NCBI GenBank assembly: GCA_021647245.1 | Contig: JAKIVC010000002.1 | Coordinates: 64,184-128,183 of the forward strand | Length of the DNA stretch: 64,000 nucleotides | Direction: 5' to 3' | DNA from: Gammaproteobacteria bacterium | GTDB taxonomy: Bacteria > Pseudomonadota > Gammaproteobacteria > RBG-16-57-12 | Part shown: piece by piece, positions 18,469-37,612 of the stretch | How the letters are laid out: the number at the start of each line of letters is the position of its first letter | Position numbering within the stretch: position 1 is the stretch's first letter | Notes under the pieces: model-generated | The model's input: the letters and a program-made list of their open reading frames with translations, nothing else | The model's database searches: none | What the model was told of the DNA's origin: nothing | Program-made: the position numbers and the translations under genes

Positions 18469-18597
18469 TCGCTTGATAGGCCATTATCTGCACGGTAAAA
18501 ATAAATTCTGTTAATACCCAGTAAATACAGACCGATACACTGTGATGTAAATGTAAAAAGGCAACTGGCCTTCTTCCCCAGGCGGATATGGAAAGTG

Positions 18598-20544
18598 ATG
18601 GAAACCAATACTTTATCAGAGAGATTACACTGCTATAACCAATGGAAAGATGACGTCGTCCATAAGCTTAAAGCTTATGAACAGGTTCTTAAGGATGCTG
18701 AACTTGACAGCGTAGAGCAGGAAATCCGCATCGACGATATGATTGCCAAGTTGCATGATGATCGTATTGTTGTGGCCTTTGTCGCAGAGTTTTCCCGGGG
18801 GAAAACCGAATTAATAAATGCTATTTTCTTTGCAGATTACAAACGCCGACTACTGCCATCTGAGGCAGGTCGTACCACGATGTGCCCAACCGAGCTATTT
18901 TACGACCATGAGAGTACGGATGCTTACATTCGGTTACTGCCAATAGAGACACGCCTAGACGACAGCAGCATCAATGAACATAAACAGGATCTGAGTTACT
19001 GGACAACGTTACACCTTGATATCTCTTCACCAGAAAAGATGGCAGAGAGCTTTAAAGAGGTTATAAAGGTTAAAAAGGTGAGCGTGAAGGAGGCGATTAA
19101 ACTCGGCCTCTACGACGAAACACTGGTGGATAATGAAGAGTCGGAGGTTGAGATCCCCATGTGGCGGCATGCCCTGATCAGCTTCCCCCACCCGCTGTTA
19201 AAAGAGGGACTAGTGATCCTGGATACACCCGGCTTGAACGCGCTGGGTACAGAGCCAGAATTGACCATGGATATGTTACCCAATGCACATGCAATCATGT
19301 TTGTTTTGGGTGCTGACACCGGTGTAACCCGCTCTGATATGGAAGTGTGGGATCAGCATGTGAGCAGTTTTAGCCGTGGCAGTAATCATTCAAACCTGAT
19401 GGTGGTGCTCAATAAAATTGACACATTATGGGATGAGTTGCTGGATGATGAGCAAGTGGCCGCCAATATCGACAGCCAGTGCCAAAATACCGCTAAAACA
19501 TTGAATGTCTCCCCCGACTCAATATTCCCTGTCTCGGCCCACAAGGGGTTGCTGGGGCGCGTGAAAAATAACCCAGAGCTGCTGGAAAAGAGTGGCATTG
19601 CATCGATTGAAAATATGCTTTCGGATACTGTTTTACCGGAAAAGCAGACCATTATTCGTGATCGGGTTATCGACGAAGTGGGCACTATGGTGGAGTCAAC
19701 GCTAAATATTATCCAGGCGCGACATAATTCAGTGCAAGAGCAGCTGGGCGAACTGCAAGGGATCGGCAACAAAAATGAGGCGATGATCAGCCACTTGATC
19801 AAGACCACCCATGCTGAAGCAATCGCCTATAAGGTGAGAGTCGACAACTACCACACCAGCCGTAATCTGCTTAACAGCAAAATCAAAGAGATCCTGGAAT
19901 ACGTTGACCTTAAAGTCCTCGATAGGGTGATTGATGAGGCTCGCAATGAGATGCAAGGCACCTGGACAACCGGCGGCTTGCGTAAATCAATGATGTTCTT
20001 CTTTGAAAATATGATGCAGATCATGTCGCAGGTGAACTACCTTGGCGAGCAAGCCAATGATTTGGTCAAGACATCTTACAAGCGCTTCCATGAAGAGTTT
20101 GGCTTGCCAAACATTCGCCCAACGCTGTTTTCCAACCAGGTTTATGTGCTGCGTATGGAGCGACTACTCAAGCGCTCCGAGGAGTACCGAACCAGCTCAA
20201 CCATGACCATGACCGAACAGAGCTTTGTTATTAAGCGTTTCTTTGTCTCGGTGGTGAGCCATGCCCGTGATGTTTTTTATAAAGCGAATGAAGAGTCTAG
20301 GCTGTGGTCAAAAAGTGCCTTGGCTCCTATCGCAACGGAGATAAAAGAGCGCAAGCGGGTAATGGATAAGCGGCTCAGTAACCTGAATCGAGTAAAAGAC
20401 TCCAAAGAGACATTAGAGAGCAAGCTGAACGAGCTGGCTGACGAACAGCGTGGCCTAGATAAACAGCTCAGCGAACTCAATGAGATCAATGAAATTATTT
20501 GCGCCCCCCTCGACAAAGAGAAGAGTGAGCCTAATAATCAATAA
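18598..20544 (+). CDS. bacterial dynamin-like GTPase family protein
   Basis: 648 aa from ATG 18598. G1 is EFSRGKTELINAI, G3 is LDTPGLNA and G4 is LNKID. It has a long helical C-terminal half with a coiled-coil tail. It is visibly AT-richer than its neighbours. Confidence 0.8.
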   Translation: METNTLSERLHCYNQWKDDVVHKLKAYEQVLKDAELDSVEQEIRIDDMIAKLHDDRIVVAFVAEFSRGKTELINAIFFADYKRRLLPSEAGRTTMCPTELFYDHESTDAYIRLLPIETRLDDSSINEHKQDLSYWTTLHLDISSPEKMAESFKEVIKVKKVSVKEAIKLGLYDETLVDNEESEVEIPMWRHALISFPHPLLKEGLVILDTPGLNALGTEPELTMDMLPNAHAIMFVLGADTGVTRSDMEVWDQHVSSFSRGSNHSNLMVVLNKIDTLWDELLDDEQVAANIDSQCQNTAKTLNVSPDSIFPVSAHKGLLGRVKNNPELLEKSGIASIENMLSDTVLPEKQTIIRDRVIDEVGTMVESTLNIIQARHNSVQEQLGELQGIGNKNEAMISHLIKTTHAEAIAYKVRVDNYHTSRNLLNSKIKEILEYVDLKVLDRVIDEARNEMQGTWTTGGLRKSMMFFFENMMQIMSQVNYLGEQANDLVKTSYKRFHEEFGLPNIRPTLFSNQVYVLRMERLLKRSEEYRTSSTMTMTEQSFVIKRFFVSVVSHARDVFYKANEESRLWSKSALAPIATEIKERKRVMDKRLSNLNRVKDSKETLESKLNELADEQRGLDKQLSELNEINEIICAPLDKEKSEPNNQ

Positions 20545-21730: not shown

Positions 21731-22842
21731 TGGAGCTTCCACAGGTTGACGACTATTCAGCGCTTTTTTTAGATGAAGTACCGATGATCGACCTGCGAGC
21801 CCCGCAGGAGTTTGAGCAGGGACGCTTTCAAAATGCGATAAACCTACCGTTAATGAACGATGAAGAGCGCAAGTTAGTGGGTATTTGCTATAAAGAACAA
21901 GGCCAGCAACAGGCGATTGCGCTGGGTCATGAGCTAGTAACCGGCGAGGTAAAACAGCAGCGCCTGGAGCGGTGGCTGCGGTTTGTAGAAGAGAATCCAC
22001 AGGGTGTTTTGTACTGCTTTCGTGGCGGACTACGCTCACAAATAACCCAGCGCTGGATCTATGAAGAGAGCGGCATCGTCTACCCACGAGTACACGGTGG
22101 CTACAAAACACTGCGCCGTTATTTGCTCGATGAGCTAGAGCGCTCCATTGCGCAGATACAGCCGACCATCCTCAGTGGACGCACTGGCACAGGCAAGACA
22201 CTGCTACTAAAGAAAATCAATAACAGCATCGACTTGGAAGGCGTCTATCATCATCGTGGTTCAGCATTTGGTCGTCACGCCACGCCACAACCGAGCCAGA
22301 TCGATGTGGAGAACCGGCTTTCAGTTGAGCTGCTGAAAAAAATCATATTAGCCGCTGAAGCAGCGCCCCAACTGCTGCTTGAAGATGAAGGGAGCAATAT
22401 CGGCTCACGCAACCTGCCCCACTCACTGATTGAGCGCATGGTGGCGGCACCCATCGTGGTACTGGAAATTCCACTAGCGCAACGGGTCGATATCGTATTC
22501 GATGAATATATTACGGCAGCGCTCTCTGAATATCAGCAGCTACTGGGCGACGAGCACGGCTTTACCACCTGGTCAGAAAACCTGCGCCAGGCACTTGGAC
22601 GGGTTAAACGTCGCTTAGGTGGAGAGCGTTACGGACTGCTTGATGCCGTGATGAGTGGTGCGATTTCTGACCAGCAACAACGGGGTGAAACATCGGCTCA
22701 CCGCGAGTGGATTCAGCGATTACTTAACGATTACTACGACCCAATGTATGACTATCAGTTACAGAAAAAAGCCGAGCGCATCACCTTTCGGGGCGATGAC
22801 AAAGCAGTAATTGAGTATCTTAATACTCAAAATATTACCTAA
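21727..22842 (+). CDS. selU: tRNA 2-selenouridine synthase
   Basis: 371 aa with an N-terminal rhodanese domain (active-site loop CFRGGLRS) and a P-loop GRTGTGKT. Its ATG overlaps the selD stop. Confidence 0.9.
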
Positions 22843-22849
22843 TTGCACA

Positions 22850-22887
22850 CTGGGGTCAGAGTAAACGTTACTTTACTCTGACCCCAG
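22850..22887 (+). terminator. perfect 16-bp stem-loop downstream of selU (possible terminator, no U-tract)
   Basis: ctggggtcagagtaaa-cgttac-tttactctgaccccag begins 8 nt after the selU stop. It is followed by cgtccactcc rather than a T run. Confidence 0.4.
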
Positions 22888-22998
22888 CGTCCACTCCCCT
22901 GCGACAACATGTCGCATTCTTTCTATGCCGGGATTCCAATACAATTTTGTCATTAACTGTTCCCTACCCGGTTTATTGACTAAATTATAGGAGTCTCC

Positions 22999-24663
22999 AT
23001 GGCTATTCATAATAAGCGTAATATTTTATGGTCGGCACTGCTGCTGAGTGGTGCTGTGGCATTGAGTGGCTGTAATAGCTCATCAGATGATAATACCGTT
23101 GAGGGTGCAGCAATCGAGGGCTCTATTTTTGCCGCCCCGGTGAGTGCTGCTTCGATATCTGTGTTTGACCTGAATGGTAATCGGGTGGCAGGTCCGGTGA
23201 CGAGTGGGGCAGATGGGCATTATCAAATCACAATTCCTGATGCACACCTTGCCAGTGACCTTAGCTTTATCAGCAGTGGCGGCACGTTTACAGATGAGGC
23301 GACGGGTGAGGCTAATGTCAGCGCAGGTCAAATGTCTGTTTATGTCGCGGCAGATAGCCTTGCGGCGGGTAGTGAAGTACACGCGACACCCTCTTCTACG
23401 ATTATGCACCAGTTGATTATGCAACATGGTCAAGGCTATGTAGAGGCGCAGGCGGCTTTTGAGAGTGCCTTTGGTTATCAGCCTGATTATACTGTGGCAC
23501 CAACGGATGCGACCGCACCGGCGGCCGATGCGACCGACCAGCAAATGTTGGCGGGACTGCGTGCCGCCAGTTTCAGCCAATTAGCCCAGGATTTGGGGAT
23601 GAGCGCCACTGATCAGTTTGCCTTGCTGGAGGCGTTGGCACTGGATTTGTCAGATGGTGAGCTTGACGGGCAGAGTACATCGGGTGCGGTTATTCTCCCG
23701 GCACCTGTCAACATACCATTGCAATTGCATATTCAGCATCAGTTTGCGATGGCACTGGAGGGGTTTCATCGGGGGGGGCGCAATGCAACCAGTTTAAATG
23801 CCAGTCAAATAGGCGTATTGCCCTTTGCTAAAGTGGCCAGCAGTGAAAGTTACCGCTTCGAATATCAGCCGGGCATGATGCCGGCAATGGAGGGGAAAAC
23901 CACATTCAAAATTGTGGTTACAGATGCGGCCACTGGGCAGCTGGCGCAGGGCGGATTGAACTTAATACTACAGGCAAAAATGTATATGGCGACAAAAATG
24001 CATGCCACACCAGTGGATGGTTGTAGTGAATCGGCAACAGCAGGTGTTTATGATTGTACTATTTTCTACCTGATGCCTTCGGTTATGAACGGTATGTCGA
24101 TGGGCTATTGGGAGTTGATGGTTACCACTGATAATAATGAAATGGTCAGCTTTTACCCGGGTGTTGGTATGGGCATGAACGGCAATGGTAAGCGCAGTTT
24201 GATGGCTCAATCAACGGGCACTGTGGTGGATGATGCCGGTTTGACTGTTCCTACCTACAGCGATTTTGTTATGAGTCCCACCTCGGCACGGAAGTACCTC
24301 CTGTTTAAAGACAGTATTGCAGCAGGCTCCATTTCAGGCCACAAAGTGCGCCTGTTTATTGCGGTAAAAGAGAGTATGGACTCATTTCCAGCGCTCTACA
24401 CAGGTGCTAGTTTTAATATGGCTAGTTTTACTGTCAGCTCAATTAACGCAGAATTTTCAGTGGATGGCGCTAGCTGGTCACCTATGACAGAAGAGGGCGC
24501 GGGTTATTGGTCTGTTGATAACGCACCGGGTTTAGTCGATGGTGTTGAAAACACGTTCTATATGCGCCTGCATGTCAATGGTGAACAGAAAACAGCCAAT
24601 GGTAGTGTGCCGGCACTGGATGGTAGTAACGATTACGCAATTTTTACAACTACCCTGAATTAA
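22999..24663 (+). CDS. large lipoprotein of unknown function with Met-rich YtkA/FixH-like segment
   Basis: 554 aa with signal peptide and lipobox ALSGC, and an AGGAG RBS. The N-terminal segment looks like a carboxypeptidase-regulatory-type beta domain (VFDLNGNRVAGPVTSGADGHYQITIP). Residues ~291-402 hold 15 Met (GMMPAMEGK, KMYMATKMH, LMPSVMNGMSMGYWELMV, GVGMGMNG). Confidence 0.7.
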   Translation: MAIHNKRNILWSALLLSGAVALSGCNSSSDDNTVEGAAIEGSIFAAPVSAASISVFDLNGNRVAGPVTSGADGHYQITIPDAHLASDLSFISSGGTFTDEATGEANVSAGQMSVYVAADSLAAGSEVHATPSSTIMHQLIMQHGQGYVEAQAAFESAFGYQPDYTVAPTDATAPAADATDQQMLAGLRAASFSQLAQDLGMSATDQFALLEALALDLSDGELDGQSTSGAVILPAPVNIPLQLHIQHQFAMALEGFHRGGRNATSLNASQIGVLPFAKVASSESYRFEYQPGMMPAMEGKTTFKIVVTDAATGQLAQGGLNLILQAKMYMATKMHATPVDGCSESATAGVYDCTIFYLMPSVMNGMSMGYWELMVTTDNNEMVSFYPGVGMGMNGNGKRSLMAQSTGTVVDDAGLTVPTYSDFVMSPTSARKYLLFKDSIAAGSISGHKVRLFIAVKESMDSFPALYTGASFNMASFTVSSINAEFSVDGASWSPMTEEGAGYWSVDNAPGLVDGVENTFYMRLHVNGEQKTANGSVPALDGSNDYAIFTTTLN

Positions 24664-24679
24664 TGTTTTAAGGTTTTCC

Positions 24680-25651
24680 ATGGCTAATCTCTCAACAAAG
24701 GCCGCCCTCTTTGCAGTGGCGGCCCTTACCCTTTCTCAGCCTTTATCTGCGGCATCATGCTGTGGCGGTGGCTCCTCTTCTGCCTTGGTTATGCCCAAAT
24801 TTGCTACGGGGATGGTCGACCTTTCGTTTTCCATGGAAAACTACGATGGCTATTGGAATAGAGAGGGGGAGTATACCGAAGACCCTGTGGGCTCTCGCTT
24901 GAAACAGTATCGTTTTAATGTTGGCTATGCCCACCGCTTGGGTAAACGCTGGCAGGCGAGTGTTGTCACCCCTTATGTCTGGAATGATAACCAATACAGC
25001 GGTGTCTCATCCGAAACCCAAGGGATGGGGGATACCACCATTAACCTTTGGTATGAAGGATTTGAGAATATCACCTGTGTCTGGAAAATAAAAAAGCCGG
25101 AGGATTGGATACCCGCCAGTTACTACGGGTTATCCATGACACTCCCCACGGGTGTCTCTCCTTATGACAATGTGGAGAATAGCTTTGATATTACCGGTCG
25201 GGGTTTTTATCGTGTGGATGCCAATCTGCTGTTGGATAAGACCATCTACCCCTGGAATGCGACACTGGCACTCTCTTACGGAAAGTATATAGAGCGTCCG
25301 GTTAATCGTGAATATGGCCGCTATGTGGCGCCGTATGATAAGCAGTTGGGTGACCGCTTTTCAGGCTCGCTCTCTGGGGGGTATACCCAGTTTCTTGATA
25401 ATATGGATACCCTGAGCTACACCCTCTCTTATGCTTATTTACAAGAGAGCCAAGGTGAAATTGATGGCATTACAGATACTACCACCGGAATGGAGAAGCA
25501 GACGCTATCCGCAACAGCAGCTTATGCCAGTATGGATCGGGACTGGGTCTTTAAACTAACCTTGAGCCACAGCCCTAAGCGGGATGGTTATGGTGAGAGT
25601 TTTCCCGTTACCAATGTGGTGACACTGGGGGTGAGCCATGTTCTTCGTTAA
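24680..25651 (+). CDS. putative outer-membrane beta-barrel protein with N-terminal Cys-Cys-Gly-Gly-Gly motif
   Basis: 323 aa. The signal peptide ends in ..SQPLSA and is followed by ASCCGGGSSS. Alternating amphipathic beta-strand patterns run to the C-terminus (WVFKLTLSHSP, VVTLGVSHVL). There is no terminal aromatic residue, so the barrel call is moderate. Confidence 0.55.
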   Translation: MANLSTKAALFAVAALTLSQPLSAASCCGGGSSSALVMPKFATGMVDLSFSMENYDGYWNREGEYTEDPVGSRLKQYRFNVGYAHRLGKRWQASVVTPYVWNDNQYSGVSSETQGMGDTTINLWYEGFENITCVWKIKKPEDWIPASYYGLSMTLPTGVSPYDNVENSFDITGRGFYRVDANLLLDKTIYPWNATLALSYGKYIERPVNREYGRYVAPYDKQLGDRFSGSLSGGYTQFLDNMDTLSYTLSYAYLQESQGEIDGITDTTTGMEKQTLSATAAYASMDRDWVFKLTLSHSPKRDGYGESFPVTNVVTLGVSHVLR

Positions 25652-26174
25652 ACTTGTTGGCCTACTCATGCTGTTGCTGTTAAGTGCCTGCCAAGATGAC
25701 CTGAATCCATCGGATAGCGATGAGCGGCCTGTGGTTCAGACCGGTATTATTGGCAATCAAGTAGGGCAAATTGCCCCTGACTTTACGGCAGGCTCAACAA
25801 CACTAAACACCGCCCACACACTCTCTTCTGATTTACAAACCTATGATGCAGTGGTGCTCTATTTCACCATGTGGTGTCCTATTTGTGATGAGCATATGAG
25901 CCATCTGCGTGCGACTTATGTGAGCAACTACCCCAATGTGCAATTTTTCCTGGTGGATTATGTGAGCGGCTCGCTGGAGGCTGCACGTAATACACAACTT
26001 GCCAGTGGTTATGGCGATATGAGAGTGCTGGTTGATGTAAACCGGGAGATTGAATTTCTTTATGAAGGCACCATGGGGAGTACGGTTGTGATTAATAACA
26101 GTGGTATTGTGCTTATGAACCAAGGCTATAGTGATGGTCGTCAACTGGGTCAGGTATTGGGGGAGCTGCCATGA
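25638..26174 (+). CDS. thioredoxin-fold lipoprotein (redoxin/AhpC-TSA-like, CPIC motif)
   Basis: 178 aa with lipobox LLSAC and the active-site-like motif FTMWCPICDEH. It overlaps the upstream gene by 14 nt. Confidence 0.75.
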   Translation: MFFVKLVGLLMLLLLSACQDDLNPSDSDERPVVQTGIIGNQVGQIAPDFTAGSTTLNTAHTLSSDLQTYDAVVLYFTMWCPICDEHMSHLRATYVSNYPNVQFFLVDYVSGSLEAARNTQLASGYGDMRVLVDVNREIEFLYEGTMGSTVVINNSGIVLMNQGYSDGRQLGQVLGELP

Positions 26175-26434
26175 GAGTGTGGTTACTCATCGCGCTATTT
26201 TTGCTCACCAAGCTGGCTTATTCTGAATCGGTCGAATTAAATGGCCAGCAGCTTTTTGAGGCTCGATGCAGTATTTGTCACCAACTGCCTGCACCCGATA
26301 TGTTGAATCATCGGCAGTGGCACCGGGTAATCAACACCATGCAAATTCGTATGCAACAAGCGGATATTGAGCCGCTGGATGAGGACGAAATTACCGCAAT
26401 AAAAGAGTATTTGCAGTGGTATGTAGATGATTAA
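26171..26434 (+). CDS. small secreted monohaem c-type cytochrome
   Basis: 87 aa with a signal peptide and a single CSICH (CxxCH) haem-binding motif. Downstream Met residues (INTMQIRM) are candidate axial ligands. It overlaps the upstream gene by 4 nt. Confidence 0.65.
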   Translation: MRVWLLIALFLLTKLAYSESVELNGQQLFEARCSICHQLPAPDMLNHRQWHRVINTMQIRMQQADIEPLDEDEITAIKEYLQWYVDD

Positions 26435-26942
26435 ATATTTGGCTTCAGCTGGCCTGTTGCTGCTTCTGAGCTTTCCGTTGCAGGCTGACCCTCTGGCAAC
26501 ATTTGGTGCGGAACCGGTGTCGGGAGCAGCAACGGCCTTTATCTTGCCGGACCTTGAGGGTGAAATTCATGCCTTGGCGCAGTGGCAGGGCAAGGTGGTG
26601 ATGCTCAACTTCTGGGCAACCTGGTGTGCCCCTTGTCGGGACGAAATGCCGGGAATGGAACGGCTTTGGCAACGCTATGGTGAGGATGGCCTAGTGGTAG
26701 TGGCGATATCTGTTGATGAGGGAATGGAGCGCCGGGTTGCCAAATTTGTTGAGATATTGAGATTAACCTATCCGATTTTACTCGACCCAGACTATGCGGT
26801 AGGTGACCTTTATCAAGTGAGCGGGCTGCCACACAGTCTATTGATTGACCGTGAAGGGCAGTTGATTGCAAAGGTTGTGGGCCAGCGTGAGTGGGATAGT
26901 GCAGAGTCTTTTGCGTTAATTGAGTCACTACTCTCCCAGTGA
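26427..26942 (+). CDS. TlpA/ResA-like periplasmic thiol:disulfide oxidoreductase
   Basis: 171 aa with a signal peptide and FWATWCAPCRDEMP. It overlaps the upstream gene by 8 nt. Confidence 0.85.
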   Translation: MIKYLASAGLLLLLSFPLQADPLATFGAEPVSGAATAFILPDLEGEIHALAQWQGKVVMLNFWATWCAPCRDEMPGMERLWQRYGEDGLVVVAISVDEGMERRVAKFVEILRLTYPILLDPDYAVGDLYQVSGLPHSLLIDREGQLIAKVVGQREWDSAESFALIESLLSQ

Positions 26943-26972
26943 GTAGCTGGCAGTCCACGGTGTGTGATCAGA

Positions 26973-27608
26973 TCAGCGTGTACCGCGAATAACCATGGTT
27001 TTCCCGCGAGCGGTGATCAACCCCTGCTCCTCCAGATTTTTTAATACTTTGCCTACCATCTCCCGCGAACACCCTGCAATGCGTCCTAACTCCTGACGGG
27101 TTATTTTGATCTGCATGCCATCGGGGTGGGTCATGGCATCCGGCTGCTTACTCAGGTCGAGCAGGGTACGGGCAACCCGTCCGGTCACATCCATAAAGGC
27201 AAGATGGCCTACTTTAAGGCTGGTGTTGCGTAGCCTGAGCGCCATCTGGCTGGCGAGGGAAAACATGATCTCGGGGTGCTCCTGGATAAGTCGACGAAAT
27301 TTATCGTAGCCAATCTCTGCCAACTCACAACTTACCCGTGCACGAATGATGGCGCTGCGCCCTTGTGACTCTTTATCAAACAGCCCCATTTCACCAAAGA
27401 AATCACCCGCATTAAGATAGGCGAGCACAATCTCGCGCCCATCCTCATCTTCTATATACACCGCGACCGAGCCTTCAGTAATGTAGTAGAGGGTCTCAGG
27501 GGTGTCACCCGCGTGGATAATCGTGCTCTTAGCAGCGTGCTTGCGACGGTGGCAGTGACTGAGAAAAAGCTCAATAACAGCATCCGGCTGTGGCGGGGTA
27601 AATTTCAT
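26973..27608 (-). CDS. crp: cAMP receptor protein family global regulator (Vfr/CRP)
   Basis: 211 aa with a cNMP-binding domain ([38 protein letters not shown]) and a C-terminal HTH ([21 protein letters not shown]). It is next to osmC and speD, as Pseudomonas vfr is. Confidence 0.9.
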
Positions 27609-32374: not shown

Positions 32375-33598
32375 ATGACGGTATGGGGAAATATGATGAG
32401 CTTTTTTGCTAAAAAAATGAAGTGGGGTGTTTGTGTCATTAGCGGCGCTACCCTAATGGTTGCAGGCTCGGCAGCATCGGCATCTGGAATCACTGAAGCG
32501 ATTAAAGGGGGTGAGGTCAGCGGTGATTTTCGTCTGCGAATGGAGACGGTGACTCAAGATAACGCCCTAAATGATGCAAATGCACTCACATTGCGCAGTC
32601 GGCTGGGTTATCGAACAGCGGACTACAAGGGATTGACTGGTTTTATGGAGTTTGAAAATGTTACCGCGCTGAATGATGATTATGAGCCGATGCCCAGTAA
32701 CCCGGCCAAAACAGAGTCAGTGGTGGCTGATCCGGAAGGCACCGAGGTTAATCAGCTCTATTTGAAGTATGTTTCGGGTGGTCACGCGATTACCGCAGGT
32801 CGCCAGCGGGTTATTCTGGATAATGCCCGTTTTGTGGGCAACGTTGGGTGGCGCCAAAATGAGCAGACATTTAATGCCATTGTCTTTACGGTAGATTCCG
32901 TTGCGGATACCTCACTTGTTTATGCTTACGTGGACGGGGTTAATACAATCCTCGGGGGTGAGTACGATACTTCCGCGTATATCTTTAACGCATCATATAC
33001 TGGCTTTAGTGCCGGAAAAATAACCGGTTACTCCTATGTTATTGAGCAGGATGATGTGCCTTCGGCCTCAAATTCAATCCTGGGTTTACGGTTTTCCGGG
33101 GCGACAGATGTAGCAGAAGCCAAGGTAAAATATACGCTTGAGTATGCGAAGCAGTCGGATTATGCCGAGGGCACTAATATTGATGCCCAATACCTGTTGG
33201 CTGAATTAGGCGCAGAATTCAGTGGTGTGGGTATCAAGCTGGGCTACGAAGTGTTGGGGGATGGTAAGGGTGCAAATGACGCTTCATTCAGCACGCCCTT
33301 AGCCACGAAACACGCCTTTAATGGCTGGGCAGATGCCTTTTTAACCACGCCTACCGATGGCCTGCAGGATATTTATCTCTCCGTTACCACCCAAATTGAA
33401 GGGGTAAAGCTGTTAGCCGTCTACCACGACTACTCCGCAGATACCGGCAGTGCCGACCATGGCTCGGAGATCAACCTGCTTGCCGCTAAAAAGTTTGCAG
33501 GCCACTACACTGCGCTACTAAAGTATGCAGATTACTCTGCGGGTGATAGTGGTACGGATACCAGAAAGCTGTGGTTGATGGGGCAGATGAAATTTTAG
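32375..33598 (+). CDS. outer-membrane porin-like beta-barrel protein (family uncertain)
   Basis: 407 aa with a signal peptide and beta-barrel repeats (GDFRLRMETV.., LTLRSRLGYRT). The C-terminal ..LMGQMKF has the terminal-Phe OMP signature. The start may be ATG 32393. Confidence 0.7.
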   Translation: MTVWGNMMSFFAKKMKWGVCVISGATLMVAGSAASASGITEAIKGGEVSGDFRLRMETVTQDNALNDANALTLRSRLGYRTADYKGLTGFMEFENVTALNDDYEPMPSNPAKTESVVADPEGTEVNQLYLKYVSGGHAITAGRQRVILDNARFVGNVGWRQNEQTFNAIVFTVDSVADTSLVYAYVDGVNTILGGEYDTSAYIFNASYTGFSAGKITGYSYVIEQDDVPSASNSILGLRFSGATDVAEAKVKYTLEYAKQSDYAEGTNIDAQYLLAELGAEFSGVGIKLGYEVLGDGKGANDASFSTPLATKHAFNGWADAFLTTPTDGLQDIYLSVTTQIEGVKLLAVYHDYSADTGSADHGSEINLLAAKKFAGHYTALLKYADYSAGDSGTDTRKLWLMGQMKF

Positions 33599-33884: not shown

Positions 33885-34967
33885 ATGTTCCGATATTTAG
33901 TAGTGGCTGCGCTGTTTCCTATGTTGTCCGGCTGTGGTGGAGATACCCCGGCATCATCCAGTGAACCAGAGCGTGTTGAAAAAATAGTCGCTCGAGAGAG
34001 TAACCGTAGCTGCCTTGCTCCGGCGGATGCTATCGATACCGCGACCCGGCTCTCCACCACAGGCTGTTTTACAGATGTTAGCAACCAGATAATGGCGGGT
34101 GGGGTGATCCCCTACACCGTCAATAGCGTGTTGTGGTCCGATGGTGAGAGCAAAGGGCGTTATTTTGCAGTGCCGGATGGCACGACCATCAGCTTAACGG
34201 TGGACGAATCTTCAATTGTTGCCAGTAATGGCACTAAAAATGGTGATTTCAACTTTCCGGTAGGCGCGGTGGTGATCAAACACTTCTATAGTGGCAGCCG
34301 TATCGTTGAGACCCGCTTGCTGATGAACCATGCCAATGATGGTTGGGGTGGCTACGCCTATCAGTGGGATGAGTCACAGAGTGACGGTACCCTGCTGGTT
34401 GGCTCAAATAGCATCACCACACCGGTCAGCCACTATTTCCCGAGCCGCGAAGAGTGTATGGAGTGCCATACGGATGCCGCTCGGGTGTTATTAGGGCCGG
34501 ATACTCTACAACTCAATTACCCCCTTTACTATACGGATGGCACAGAAGAGAACTATCTCGATGCTTTGGTTCGATTAAATTACCTCTCGGCACCGTTGCT
34601 GGCGGATTATAAGGTGGATCGGCTCTATGCAATTGACGATAGCGACGCACCATTAGAGCAGCGAGCCAGAAGCTATTTGCACAGTAACTGCTCGGGCTGT
34701 CACCGCACTGGCGCACCGCAAGGTGGCTTTGATCTTCGTTACACCTCATCGTTTGTAAACAATGTTTGTGGTATCGCTGCAGCAGAGCCGACCAGCCCCA
34801 CCGGAGGGTTGCTGATCGACCCCGGCAATGCTGATAACGCCACTATTCAGCAGCGACTCGCCTCTATGGGGAGCATTCAAATGCCACCTATCGGGCGAGA
34901 GCAAACCGACCCCGAAGCGGTTCAAGTGATGGCTGATTGGATCAATAGCCTGCAGGGCTGTGATTAA
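33885..34967 (+). CDS. putative dihaem c-type cytochrome lipoprotein
   Basis: Lipobox MLSGC and two CxxCH motifs (CMECH, CSGCH). ATG 33885 follows GAGGTG. Confidence 0.7.
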   Translation: MFRYLVVAALFPMLSGCGGDTPASSSEPERVEKIVARESNRSCLAPADAIDTATRLSTTGCFTDVSNQIMAGGVIPYTVNSVLWSDGESKGRYFAVPDGTTISLTVDESSIVASNGTKNGDFNFPVGAVVIKHFYSGSRIVETRLLMNHANDGWGGYAYQWDESQSDGTLLVGSNSITTPVSHYFPSREECMECHTDAARVLLGPDTLQLNYPLYYTDGTEENYLDALVRLNYLSAPLLADYKVDRLYAIDDSDAPLEQRARSYLHSNCSGCHRTGAPQGGFDLRYTSSFVNNVCGIAAAEPTSPTGGLLIDPGNADNATIQQRLASMGSIQMPPIGREQTDPEAVQVMADWINSLQGCD

Positions 34968-37612
34968 CCCAGCAACTTTTTTAACTCCGGCACACATGAG
35001 CCACAATTTGTGCCGGCATTCAGATAGCTACCAATCTCTTCCACACTTTTCAAGCCATGTTTTTGGATCGCCTCTCGAATACTGTTTTCACCTACCTTGA
35101 AACAGGCGCAGACCACACGCCCGGTATCAACCTGGCCGACCGGTGGCTTTCCAGTGAGCAGTGCACGGCGCTCATCATTATCCAGCACCTCTTTTTCAAA
35201 AAGTGAGGCGAGCCAACTGCGGGGTGGCAGCGCTTTGTCCGGGGCGATGAAAATACAGCTCTCCACTTGATCTCCTGTCATACGAATACCTCGATAGGTG
35301 TTTGCGCCGTTATCCAGCAGTTCGACCCAGTTGACATCATTATTTGAGGTGCAAAGATAACTTCTCGCCCATGCGGGGAGATCTTTGGAGCGTTGCTCAC
35401 CCGCCACTTCGTATCGATAGTGGTTATTGCCGGTTGCCCTTGCCCAGTAACAGACCCCTTCCAGTTTTAATGCGCGGCGCGAAAGGATAAAGCCGTGCCA
35501 TGCGGTTTGGTAAGGCTTAAGCTGCACCGGCGTATGTTTAAACTCAGGTTGGCCCGAAAGCGGGTCTACCGCAGGATTGACCACTGCGGAGGCTTTTCCC
35601 CTGCTGGAAAACTGCTCGCTCCAGTGCATCGGCGCAAACAATTCACCACGGCGCTGGCCGTTGTCCAAGCGTACTCGCCCGATCATCTCACCCCAGCGGC
35701 TGGTCACCGTGGCTAACGCATCCTCATTGATAGAGAGCGCCACGGCATCATCAGGATGAATGGCGATGTAGGGTTCGGGGCTATGCTCAGATAGCCGTGG
35801 CGCCTTTCCAGTGCGGGTCATGGTGTGCCACTGGTCGCGTACCCGCCCAGTATTCAGAATAAAGGGAAAGCTGTCACAGGGCATGTGTGCGGGTAGCCGT
35901 GGCTCAATGGCTTGAAACTGTGCCTTGCCTGATGGCGTGAAAAAATGGCCATCACTAAACATGCGAGCACTCCCCGCAGGCTGCTGTTGATTCACTGGCC
36001 ACTGGATGGGTGATAGCTGGTGGTAACTCTGTTGAGTTTGACTGCTCAGTGCCGAAAGGTCGAAGTCACGCTCTCCGTTGTTTCTATATCCGGAAAGAGC
36101 CGCGTGTTCGTTAAATATTTCGTAAGGGTGTTGATAATTAAAACCATCGCTATACCCCATACGCTTGGCCACCTCAGAGATTATCCACCAATCGGGTTTT
36201 GCTTCACCGGCAGCCGCCTGAAAAGCTCTCTGGCGTGAGATACGTCGTTCAGAATTGGTAACGGTGCCGCTCTTCTCCCCCCAGCCTTGGGCCGGTAATA
36301 AAATATTGGCACGGAGGGTGGTGTCGGTCTGCTTAACGCAATCGGAGACCACTACAAACTCGCACTGTTTGATCGCTTCTGCAACGTGGTCTGCATTGGG
36401 CATGCTGGCTGCGGGGTTGGTGGCCATGATCCATACAGCCTTGATCTTTCCCTTGGCAATATCATCAAACATATCTACCGCCTTGCGGCCGCTTTGTTTA
36501 GGAATGGCGGGTGAGCCCCAGAAGCTTTGTACTAAAGTACGGTGCGCGGGGTTTTTTATCTCCATATGAGCGGCCAACATATTGGCCAACCCGCCTACTT
36601 CGCGCCCTCCCATGGCGTTTGGTTGGCCAGTAAAAGAGAAGGGGCCCATGCCGGGGCGACCGATACGCCCGGTGGCCAGATGGCAGTTGATAATGGCATT
36701 GACCTTATCCGAACCACTGGTTGATTGATTAATGCCCTGAGAGTAGACAGTGACCACCCGCTCTGTGCGGGAGAAGAGTCGATAAAACGCTTGAACCACA
36801 GACACTTCGAGGCCACAGCGTAGTGCCACGGAGTCGACGCTAGGCGCGGTTTTTTCTGCCATGCGGAGTGCGGTCTCAAACCCCTCGGTATAAGCATTCA
36901 AATAACTGTGGTTTATTTCACCATCCCGCTGCAGATAACTTAGCAAGCCATTAAACAGTACGGTATCGGTACCAGAACGCAGGGGCAGGTGGAGGTCGGC
37001 AATGTCACAGCTGGGGGTCTCTCTGGGGTCGATTACTACCACCATCAGATCGGGGTTGACCCGCTTTGCCTGGTTGATTCGCTGAAACAGTACCGGATGA
37101 CACCAGGCTGCATTGGTGCCGGCCAGTACAATCAGCTTTGCTCGTTCCAGATCTTCATAACAGCAGGGCACGGTGTCTGACCCAAAAGCGCGTTTATGGC
37201 CTGTGACAGAAGAGGACATGCAGAGCCGCGAGTTGGTATCAATATTGGCTGTGCCGATATAACCTTTGATCAGCTTATTGGCGACATAGTAATCTTCAGT
37301 CAAGAGTTGCCCCGACACATAAAAAGCGACCGCGTCAGGGCCGTGCTGCTCAACGGTTGCTAAAAACCTCTCCGCGACCTCCCCAAGCGCCTGATCCCAG
37401 CTGGCGGGTATTCCCTCAATTTCGGGCTGGAGCAGCCGCCCCTCCAGTCCCAAGGTTTCGCCCAACGCCGACCCTTTGGAGCAGAGCTTGCCAAAATTAG
37501 CGGGGTGCAGCGGGTCACCTTGGACTGTGTAGCCGCCATCAGCATTCGCTGCTACCAGCACTCCGCAGCCAACACCACAATAGGGGCAGGTTGTTTTTGT
37601 CATCTTGGACAT
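34964..37612 (-). CDS. nasA: assimilatory nitrate reductase catalytic subunit with C-terminal BFD-like [2Fe-2S] domain
   Basis: 882 aa. The N-terminal TCPYCGVGCGV 4Fe-4S motif is typical of NasA/NarB, followed by a molybdopterin oxidoreductase body. The C-terminal CACFKV...CGSCVPE is a BFD-type cluster. Confidence 0.9.
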   Translation of the reverse strand: MSKMTKTTCPYCGVGCGVLVAANADGGYTVQGDPLHPANFGKLCSKGSALGETLGLEGRLLQPEIEGIPASWDQALGEVAERFLATVEQHGPDAVAFYVSGQLLTEDYYVANKLIKGYIGTANIDTNSRLCMSSSVTGHKRAFGSDTVPCCYEDLERAKLIVLAGTNAAWCHPVLFQRINQAKRVNPDLMVVVIDPRETPSCDIADLHLPLRSGTDTVLFNGLLSYLQRDGEINHSYLNAYTEGFETALRMAEKTAPSVDSVALRCGLEVSVVQAFYRLFSRTERVVTVYSQGINQSTSGSDKVNAIINCHLATGRIGRPGMGPFSFTGQPNAMGGREVGGLANMLAAHMEIKNPAHRTLVQSFWGSPAIPKQSGRKAVDMFDDIAKGKIKAVWIMATNPAASMPNADHVAEAIKQCEFVVVSDCVKQTDTTLRANILLPAQGWGEKSGTVTNSERRISRQRAFQAAAGEAKPDWWIISEVAKRMGYSDGFNYQHPYEIFNEHAALSGYRNNGERDFDLSALSSQTQQSYHQLSPIQWPVNQQQPAGSARMFSDGHFFTPSGKAQFQAIEPRLPAHMPCDSFPFILNTGRVRDQWHTMTRTGKAPRLSEHSPEPYIAIHPDDAVALSINEDALATVTSRWGEMIGRVRLDNGQRRGELFAPMHWSEQFSSRGKASAVVNPAVDPLSGQPEFKHTPVQLKPYQTAWHGFILSRRALKLEGVCYWARATGNNHYRYEVAGEQRSKDLPAWARSYLCTSNNDVNWVELLDNGANTYRGIRMTGDQVESCIFIAPDKALPPRSWLASLFEKEVLDNDERRALLTGKPPVGQVDTGRVVCACFKVGENSIREAIQKHGLKSVEEIGSYLNAGTNCGSCVPELKKLLG

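Follow-up and report, generated by a model that had tools for sequence, protein, structure and literature searches.

Within a 64,000-nucleotide stretch of a gammaproteobacterial genome (assembly GCA_021647245.1, contig JAKIVC010000002.1, positions 64,184 to 128,183 of the forward strand), which we refer to as the window, five genes on the plus strand, termed g1 to g5 and located at positions 22999-26942, form an extended version of a conserved three-gene core, g1-g2-g3. This core encodes a lipoprotein with a Met/His domain, an outer membrane β-barrel with invariant cysteines, and a thioredoxin-fold lipoprotein. We hold with moderate confidence that the locus is an outer membrane-anchored module for a soft thiophilic metal, most probably Cu(I). 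The evidence base of this functional reading is entirely computational and consists of sequence, predicted fold, and gene neighbourhood, from which we infer the metal, the order of its transfer, the topology, and the direction.

The core became apparent from a scan with a g2 profile of one genome per species, which yielded 177 relatives, and 80 loci were kept; co-occurrence was counted in those loci with sufficient flanking DNA, and individual loci carry labels such as L001. The 80 loci belong to the Gammaproteobacteria (Chromatiales, Sedimenticola, Thiohalomonadales, and Candidatus Tenderia), Zetaproteobacteria/Mariprofundus, Geobacteraceae/Desulfuromonadaceae, Nitrospirota, and Nitrospinota. 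Since the same gene order recurs among them in at least five phyla or classes, a chance adjacency of these genes was rejected. Immediately 5' of g2, g1 is present in 67 of the 68 informative loci, and g3 follows g2 immediately in all 75 loci that are informative in this respect. The 14-nt overlap between g2 and g3 is retained in 66 of 79 loci because the ATG start codon of g3 falls within the conserved Ser-His-Val codons that end g2. A minimal, stand-alone g1-g2-g3 trio with a short form of g1 is found at L087:3080-5574, and this isolated trio, the co-occurrence, and the g2/g3 overlap together identify g1-g2-g3 as the conserved unit. In contrast to these constant genes, g4 is in place in 36 of 64 loci and g5 is found downstream in 31 of 64, both mainly in Gamma- and Zetaproteobacteria. 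The 28 loci without g4 include every Geobacteraceae and Nitrospirota locus examined, and in some Nitrospirota a g5-like gene is located 5' of g1 rather than downstream. The first-pass annotation of the window had proposed a translationally coupled, uncharacterized envelope unit of five genes; the coupling is supported, and g1-g2-g3 are conserved as well, whereas g4 and g5 are accessory.

For both g1 and g2 there are hundreds of homologues, none of which has been named and most of which come from uncultured Gammaproteobacteria of vents and sediments; a cultured carrier of the trio is Oryzomonas sagensis (Desulfuromonadia, Geobacteraceae). An already described operon was looked for in the curated family models, the source annotations, and the literature, and no description of the trio was found in any of them; a Tenderiales preprint mentions only "a thioredoxin" beside a cytochrome cluster. 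The parts belong to known superfamilies, and the trio as a set is undescribed in the literature found and in the curated models.

Concerning the window itself, the ORF coordinates and a sequence check agree with the five ORFs, the motifs, and the junctions that had been reported (g1/g2, +16 nt; g2/g3, −14 nt; g3/g4, −4 nt; g4/g5, −8 nt), as well as with the Met-rich segment of g1 (Table 1). Separate internal promoters and terminators were looked for, and the scan showed no excess of such sites within the cluster. An Rfam scan of positions 22600-27200 detected no RNA elements.

Table 1. Features of the g1-g5 cluster of the window and, in the last two rows, of related loci (locus label:positions)
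Feature	Position	Strand	Description
g1	22999-24663	+	554-aa lipoprotein; lipobox LSGC, Cys25, Asn at +2; four-part AF2 model
Met/His domain of g1	23824-24210	+	Residues 276-404, 15 Met; proposed Cu(I) site
g2	24680-25651	+	323 aa; predicted 12-stranded outer membrane β-barrel, FapF/COG4313 fold
ASCCGGGS of g2	24752-24775	+	Residues 25-32; at or near the mature N-terminus; no substitutions in 64-120 homologues
Cys133 of g2	25076-25078	+	Invariant; between two strands (residues 127-145)
g3	25638-26174	+	178-aa thioredoxin-fold lipoprotein; lipobox LSAC, Cys18
WCPICDEH of g3	25872-25895	+	CxxCxxH pattern kept in at least 95% of 60 homologues
g4	26171-26434	+	87-aa secreted monohaem cytochrome c; CSICH at 26267-26281
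g5	26427-26942	+	171-aa secreted TlpA/ResA-like thiol:disulfide oxidoreductase; WCAPCRDE at 26622-26645
Two hairpins after the selU stop codon	22850-22916	+	16-bp perfect stem at 22850-22887; 7-bp stem at 22900-22916, then TTCTTTCT
Small Cys/His-rich proteins	L062:183-461, L065:7127-7405, L079:6908-7228, L072:7576-8163, L077:7518-8093		5' of g1
Small Cys/His-rich proteins, further members	L080:7459-8085, L053:7468-8031, L067:7731-8096, L078:5320-5820		5' of g1

The AlphaFold2 (AF2) model of g1, with a predicted local distance difference test score of 89, comprises an N-terminal immunoglobulin-like domain, a helical domain, and two β-sandwich domains, of which the first contains the Met/His residues and the other is C-terminal. 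Short forms of g1 of about 300 amino acids are common (L058:8988-9887, P0253, and P0270-P0383) and lack the immunoglobulin-like and helical domains, which are therefore dispensable. The lipobox residue Cys25 is kept in 98-100% of the homologues, and, because neither g1 nor g3 has an Asp at position +2, both should be outer membrane lipoproteins according to the E. coli sorting rule. Within the Met/His domain, M328, M330, H335, and M359 are invariant, and C353, M363, M368, M391, and M393 are each kept in at least 90% of the sequences; an acidic cluster for iron is not conserved among the invariant residues.

Pfam and NCBIfam scans gave no significant match for g1. When the excised Met/His domain was scanned member by member, the top family, at a weak level, was PF13115 (YtkA-like), which matched 6 of 27 domain members (best E value, 7.7e-5) and 14 of 45 short-form members (best E value, 2.1e-7). 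This family comprises YtkA/CtaK and the YtkA domain of YcnJ of Bacillus subtilis, and YtkA/CtaK is a lipoprotein that acts with Sco in CuA assembly (PMC13344008). Like CtaK, g1 is a membrane-tethered lipoprotein as judged from its lipobox, and, as CtaK acts with the thioredoxin-fold protein Sco, g1 is accompanied by the thioredoxin-fold protein g3. However, CtaK resides in the cytoplasmic membrane of a Gram-positive bacterium, and the CxxC motif of g3 differs from the CxxxC motif of Sco.

The best single-domain structural match of the whole g1 model was CrdA of Helicobacter pylori (PDB 9LL2), a Met-rich protein that binds Cu(I) and Cu(II) (PMC9182242); it scored 12.9 compared to about 9 for P19 proteins, at an identity of 14% and with the aligned g1 domain not stated. 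The assignment of CrdA to a domain of g1 is indirect because a phmmer search from PcoC, meant to map CrdA onto one of them, did not reach CrdA. The likeness to CrdA and CopC/PcoC is thus one of fold, with no sequence-profile link, and the CopC Pfam model was not matched by g1 or its Met/His domain members. Furthermore, g1 is fivefold larger than CrdA, contains an invariant His that CrdA does not have, and has a barrel and a thioredoxin-fold protein as partners, whereas CrdA forms part of the copper-resistance set HP1326-HP1329 (PMC9182242). An exhaustive profile search with the Met/His domain retrieved 397 relatives in 1.84e9 representatives, all of the same family with its long and short architectures, and fusions of the domain to other copper domains were absent among them.

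For g2, AF2 predicts a monomeric 12-stranded β-barrel, within the approximately 270 to 320 residues of COG4313 channels. The fold is common to the COG4313/Phenol_MetA_deg channels (Pput2725, PDB 4RL8; TcpY; SphA) and to FapF (PDB 5O65), at an identity of only 15%. The known members are tied to hydrophobic compounds or amyloid secretion; g2 differs from them by the addition of the ASCCGGGS tip, Cys133, and obligatory lipoprotein partners, and its loci contain no aromatic-degradation or fap genes. The barrel has a mean column identity of 67% across phyla, and both the tip and Cys133 are invariant. Pfam and NCBIfam scans returned no significant match for g2, PF13557 did not match the window protein at an E value of 0.1 or below, and some homologues carry precomputed PF13557 matches, which are partly weak. 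With 13.5 bits for the NCBIfam FapF model, for which the cut-off is 700, and no fap genes in the window or the 80 loci, membership of g2 in the FapF family was rejected.

In COG4313 channels the lumen is occupied by the N-terminal approximately 14 residues (PMC4493636), and by analogy the Cys-Cys segment of g2 may occupy the periplasmic part of the barrel lumen. Cys133 is a possible third thiol ligand or a possible disulfide partner of Cys27 or Cys28. The first-pass annotation had described g2 as a probable barrel with the mature N-terminus ASCCGGGSSS. The barrel is predicted and the ASCCGGGS segment is present behind a hydrophobic leader, but a cleavage before the first Cys, by signal peptidase I or at an atypical lipobox, appears to fit at least as well, because an invariant A-x-S directly precedes Cys-Cys; the site is therefore uncertain.

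The third member of the core, g3, gave a weak Redoxin/AhpC-TSA match in the family scans, and its homologues conserve both the lipobox Cys and the WCPxCxxH pattern. ResA, TlpA, and CcmG reductases have a Glu at the position that is held by His in g3, and this Glu is also found in g5. Judged by its motif, the CxxCxxH of g3 would fit a role as a metal-binding site or gate partner as well as a role as a reductase. The possibility that g3 is a Sco/SenC chaperone was rejected, since the scans gave no match to a Sco-type family and g3 has CxxCxxH instead of the CxxxC and distal His of Sco. The accessory protein g4 matched class I cytochromes c weakly, with further weak matches to the TorC C-terminal and SorB-like families; in a zetaproteobacterial homologue (L053:11528-11800) the haem motif is CAGICH, that is CxxxCH instead of the usual CxxCH. 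For g5 the scans reported AhpC-TSA with 91 bits and Redoxin with 71 bits, together with a WCxPCxxE motif and a hydrophobic N-terminus. It remained below the NCBIfam cut-offs for the ResA subfamily (121.9 versus 170 bits) and the TlpA equivalog (104.8 versus 230 bits) and is therefore termed TlpA-like and not assigned as an orthologue.

The family scans are consistent with the earlier view of g3, g4, and g5 as a thioredoxin-fold protein, a cytochrome c, and a TlpA-like oxidoreductase, although for g3 and g4 weakly. The same view had included a relay of reducing power via two thioredoxins and a cytochrome; as g4 and g5 are accessory, this relay is not an essential mechanism. Periplasmic thioredoxin-fold proteins that act on copper or copper chaperones are known from the TlpA-Sco-PCuAC and ScsABCD systems, and g5 is likewise of the TlpA/ResA-like kind. 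Those systems, however, have no outer membrane barrel, and g5 is dispensable in half of the trio loci. Homologues of Sco, PCuAC, and DsbD/ScsB are absent from the cluster and the 64-kb window, which also encodes no DsbD/CcdA-type electron source for g5.

Links to copper also emerge from the genes that surround the trio in other lineages. When the two genes closest to the cluster on each side were counted by Pfam family without preselection, the commonest downstream families were NosL (5 loci) and FtrD-like proteins (4 loci), and the commonest upstream families were multihaem cytochromes and NHL repeats. NosL genes directly follow g3 in Nitrospirota and Desulfuromonadia, often in two or three copies: the order in Desulfuromonadia is g1-g2-g3-NosL, and another long contig has g1-g2-g3-NosL-NosL. 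In O. sagensis the operon continues after g3 with NosL, a 146-amino-acid protein, a MacB/FtsX-ABC pair, and a second NosL, and the 146-amino-acid protein occupies the position of a stand-alone YtkA-like lipoprotein gene in another Geobacteraceae version of the locus (L072). A Tat-exported Csp1 copper storage protein (E value, 1.2e-12 to 5FJD) is encoded in or near the cluster in L036, L041, L053, and L069, and in two of these, the Zetaproteobacteria L053 and L069, it is located directly 3' of the cluster. Of these proteins, NosL serves as a chaperone for Cu(I), and Csp1 stores it (PMC7558416). As to the thiophilic element, for which Cu(I) and selenium had both been named initially, the CrdA fold, the YtkA/CtaK sequence likeness, and the NosL, YtkA-like, and Csp1 neighbours support Cu(I), and the selenium part is not supported.

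In the mechanism that we propose, g1 would bind Cu(I) at its Met/His site, on the cell surface or else on the inner face of the outer membrane. Ligand exchange would then transfer the metal to the three g2 thiols, which would be situated within the narrow channel or at its mouth, and from these it would pass to the CxxC(H) site of g3. From g3 the metal would reach periplasmic copper proteins, which would be NosL, YtkA-like proteins, and Csp1 in loci with these genes nearby and Sco/PCuAC-type chaperones elsewhere. Here and in about half of the loci, g4 could set the oxidation state of copper by converting Cu(II) to Cu(I), and g5 could act as a reductant that maintains the thiols of g2 and g3 in the reduced state. 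We favour acquisition over detoxification, though this is held loosely, because the conserved unit contains no efflux pump, because the linked genes encode chaperones and a storage protein, and because the hosts inhabit sulfidic or iron-rich sediments and vents in which copper is scarce. A precedent for the use of such ligands is OprC, an outer membrane transporter with a Cys/Met/His Cu(I) site (PMC7558416).

Several observations weigh against the assignment of a copper function. The Met/His domain of the window protein itself has no Pfam match, and when the PDB was searched with profiles of the whole g1 sequence and of this domain, at E values up to 10, no CopC or CrdA chain was recovered, and no P19 chain either. 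Of about 85 loci, roughly a dozen have NosL, Csp1, or YtkA-like neighbours, and none of these loci belongs to the Gammaproteobacteria nearest the window; the most frequent upstream neighbour, in about 15 loci, is a multihaem cytochrome/NHL cluster that points to electron transfer and not to metal supply. Residues 1-34 of g2 were modelled with an AF2 confidence below 50, so that the lumen location of Cys-Cys is derived by analogy. Finally, a site of three thiols would also be appropriate for Hg(II), As(III), Ag(I), or Cd(II).

A more specific proposal, which we regard as tentative, is that the trio constitutes a TonB-independent outer membrane route for Cu(I), in which the lumen-inserted Cys-Cys tip and the third Cys would serve as a thiolate filter or gate that g1 loads and g3 unloads. 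A review lists porins, the TonB-dependent NosA/OprC, and chalkophore uptake as the only modes of copper entry through the outer membrane (PMC7558416), so that the trio, if the proposal holds, would be a fourth pathway, used by iron-oxidizing, iron-reducing, sulfur-oxidizing, and nitrite-oxidizing bacteria of sulfidic and metal-rich habitats. In OprC/NosA, outer membrane Cu(I) binding also involves Cys, Met, and His (CxxxM-HxM; PMC7558416), and NosA is tied to NosL-dependent cuproenzyme assembly, as the trio is linked to NosL. In contrast to OprC/NosA, g2 has 12 strands and is not TonB dependent, with no TonB-type partner genes recurring beside it, and the candidate ligands of the trio are divided between the lipoprotein and the barrel tip. 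The trio would fall within envelope copper/thiol trafficking, with a credible chance of being a new outer membrane copper route. Few steps in the copper homeostasis of bacteria are understood as little as the crossing of the outer membrane, and the trio is found in several phyla on which the cycling of iron, sulfur, and nitrogen in sediments and at vents depends. Copper supply to respiratory cuproenzymes could thus have a new route or checkpoint in the trio, a possibility that is concrete enough to be tested. The trio also suggests a function for two protein families annotated merely as hypothetical and would expand the range of roles known for the COG4313/FapF barrel fold, and the cultured carrier O. 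sagensis opens the way to genetic tests.

The multihaem neighbours raise the alternative that the trio takes part in extracellular electron transfer, either as a small redox conduit in which a metal or disulfide centre at the Cys-Cys tip within the barrel would link g1, as a surface lipoprotein, to the periplasmic cytochrome c g4, or as a factor for the assembly or maintenance of surface multihaem cytochromes. In the approximately 15 gammaproteobacterial loci concerned, a block of six multihaem genes is located on the same strand directly 5' of the cluster, 0 to 10 kb upstream of the g1 homologue (L001:1-7692, L005:691-7892, L017, L018, L022, L027, L034, and L057 are examples). CXXCH motifs number about 7, 8, 6, 7, 3, and 12 in the six proteins, of which one includes a Fer4_5 domain as well and the 12-haem member has NHL repeats either fused to it or beside it. 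The block looks like an undescribed extracellular electron transfer gene set. In addition, the hosts are enriched in iron oxidizers, iron reducers, and electroautotrophs (Zetaproteobacteria, Candidatus Tenderia, and Geobacteraceae), and the operon of the window includes a cytochrome c. We nevertheless consider this alternative unlikely. Most loci, the window included, have no multihaem block, g4 is missing from all the Geobacteraceae and Nitrospirota examined, g1 and g2 contain no haem motif and have Met, His, and Cys as invariant ligands, and the NosL and Csp1 neighbours are left unexplained. Furthermore, a 12-stranded barrel is too narrow to house a cytochrome, and the known porin-cytochrome conduits (MtrAB/Pcc and Cyc2) employ a larger barrel that encloses, or is fused to, a cytochrome, whereas g4 is a monohaem protein. 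Membership of the cluster among these conduits was rejected in view of the 12 strands, the lack of a haem motif in g1 and g2, and the absence of g4 from 28 of 64 loci.

The FtrD-like neighbours, in turn, suggest a copper-dependent iron system of the P19/FtrA-FtrABCD or FetMP-like type, in which the g1 site would hold copper as a cofactor for Fe(II) uptake or oxidation at the outer membrane. Four Nitrospirota loci have an FtrD-like (PF10080) gene after NosL, MacB-type ABC genes are nearby, and the host range is centred on iron. The P19 locus of Campylobacter contains thioredoxin and ABC genes, and the Nitrospirota neighbourhood resembles it. We judge this reading to be improbable: P19/FtrABCD iron uptake comprises a P19-family protein and an Ftr1-type permease, but the Pfam scans of the trio reported no P19-family model, and no Ftr1/EfeU-type permease is linked to it. 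The FtrD-like neighbours are limited to one lineage, the Met/His domain has no conserved acidic iron cluster, and CrdA outscores the P19 proteins in the structural comparison.

A role of g2 chiefly as a dedicated translocon or anchor that places g1 on the surface, analogous to Slam- or FapF-type systems, with g3 and the cysteines serving in folding or quality control, is quite improbable and would be compatible with a copper role of g1. The strict adjacency of g1 and g2 would agree with it, and the high column identity of the barrel is as expected of a protein-protein machine. However, the periplasmic coiled-coil region typical of FapF is absent, the FapF model scores far below its cut-off, and the strict translational coupling of g3 to g2 is left unexplained. 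Moreover, lipoprotein exporters are not known to carry an invariant Cys-Cys-Gly-Gly-Gly tip together with a third invariant Cys.

Very improbable, finally, is a module for another thiophilic species, that is sulfur or polysulfide, Hg(II), As(III), Ag(I), or selenium, which could be bound as selenotrisulfide on the vicinal thiols and feed SelD/SelU. Any of these would bind the three invariant g2 thiols and the CxxC of g3, and many hosts are sulfur oxidizers of sulfidic sediments. However, the Met/His cluster and the likeness to CrdA and YtkA suit Cu(I) or Ag(I), not oxyanions of Se, S, and As, and mer, ars, and sox genes do not recur beside the trio. Selenium specifically is the weakest of the alternatives: selD-selU is located 156 nt 5' of the cluster in the window, but selD/selU adjoin the trio in just 1 of the 80 loci, that of the closest relative (L008), where two further ORFs lie between selU and g1. 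The selenium linkage was rejected on this count, and the vicinity of the selenium genes is a matter of local synteny and not of function. Two strong hairpins moreover separate selU from g1 in the window (minimum free energy of the pair, −40.2 kcal/mol; z = −9.5 versus shuffles), which are likely to mark the transcription boundary between selD-selU and the cluster; the long hairpin and the terminator-like one together may act as a terminator.

A set of small Cys/His-rich proteins is encoded just 5' of g1 in Nitrospirota, Desulfuromonadia, and Zetaproteobacteria (Table 1), with no counterpart at this position in the window. They share a single N-terminal hydrophobic segment, a core with DVCH, CCCW, and ECACGCH, and a C-terminal PPP[KR]; Pfam returned no match for them, and they may be a further member of the system. 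In O. sagensis, a 1,597-amino-acid protein with a Big_7 domain and a faint multicopper oxidase (Cu-oxidase_2) match is encoded directly 5' of g1 (L089:3307-8100). A PilS-type sensor kinase with six transmembrane segments is encoded near the cluster in 18 loci, including L011, L013, L025, L037, and L038, and in L001 a sensor kinase (6TM-PilS and HATPase_c) is paired with a short HTH_8 response regulator, a pair that resembles RegB/RegA. An NnrS gene adjoins the cluster at L003:6546-7751. The sensor kinase and NnrS neighbours are hints of a redox- or respiration-linked regulation.

The genes 5' of the cluster in the window encode, besides selD and mnmH/selU, a dynamin-like GTPase; crp is the convergent gene on the 3' side, and the remaining genes of the window are housekeeping genes. 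The GTPase, located directly 5' of selD at positions 18595-20544, is a 649-amino-acid dynamin-family protein with a Dynamin_N domain and a weak LeoA/HP0731-like match. Two further proteins of the window are unrelated to the cluster: an alginate export-like outer membrane barrel with a weak PF13372 match (32375-33598), and, on the minus strand (34964-37612), a molybdopterin oxidoreductase with a C-terminal BFD-like [2Fe-2S] domain, an architecture that is that of assimilatory nitrate reductases.

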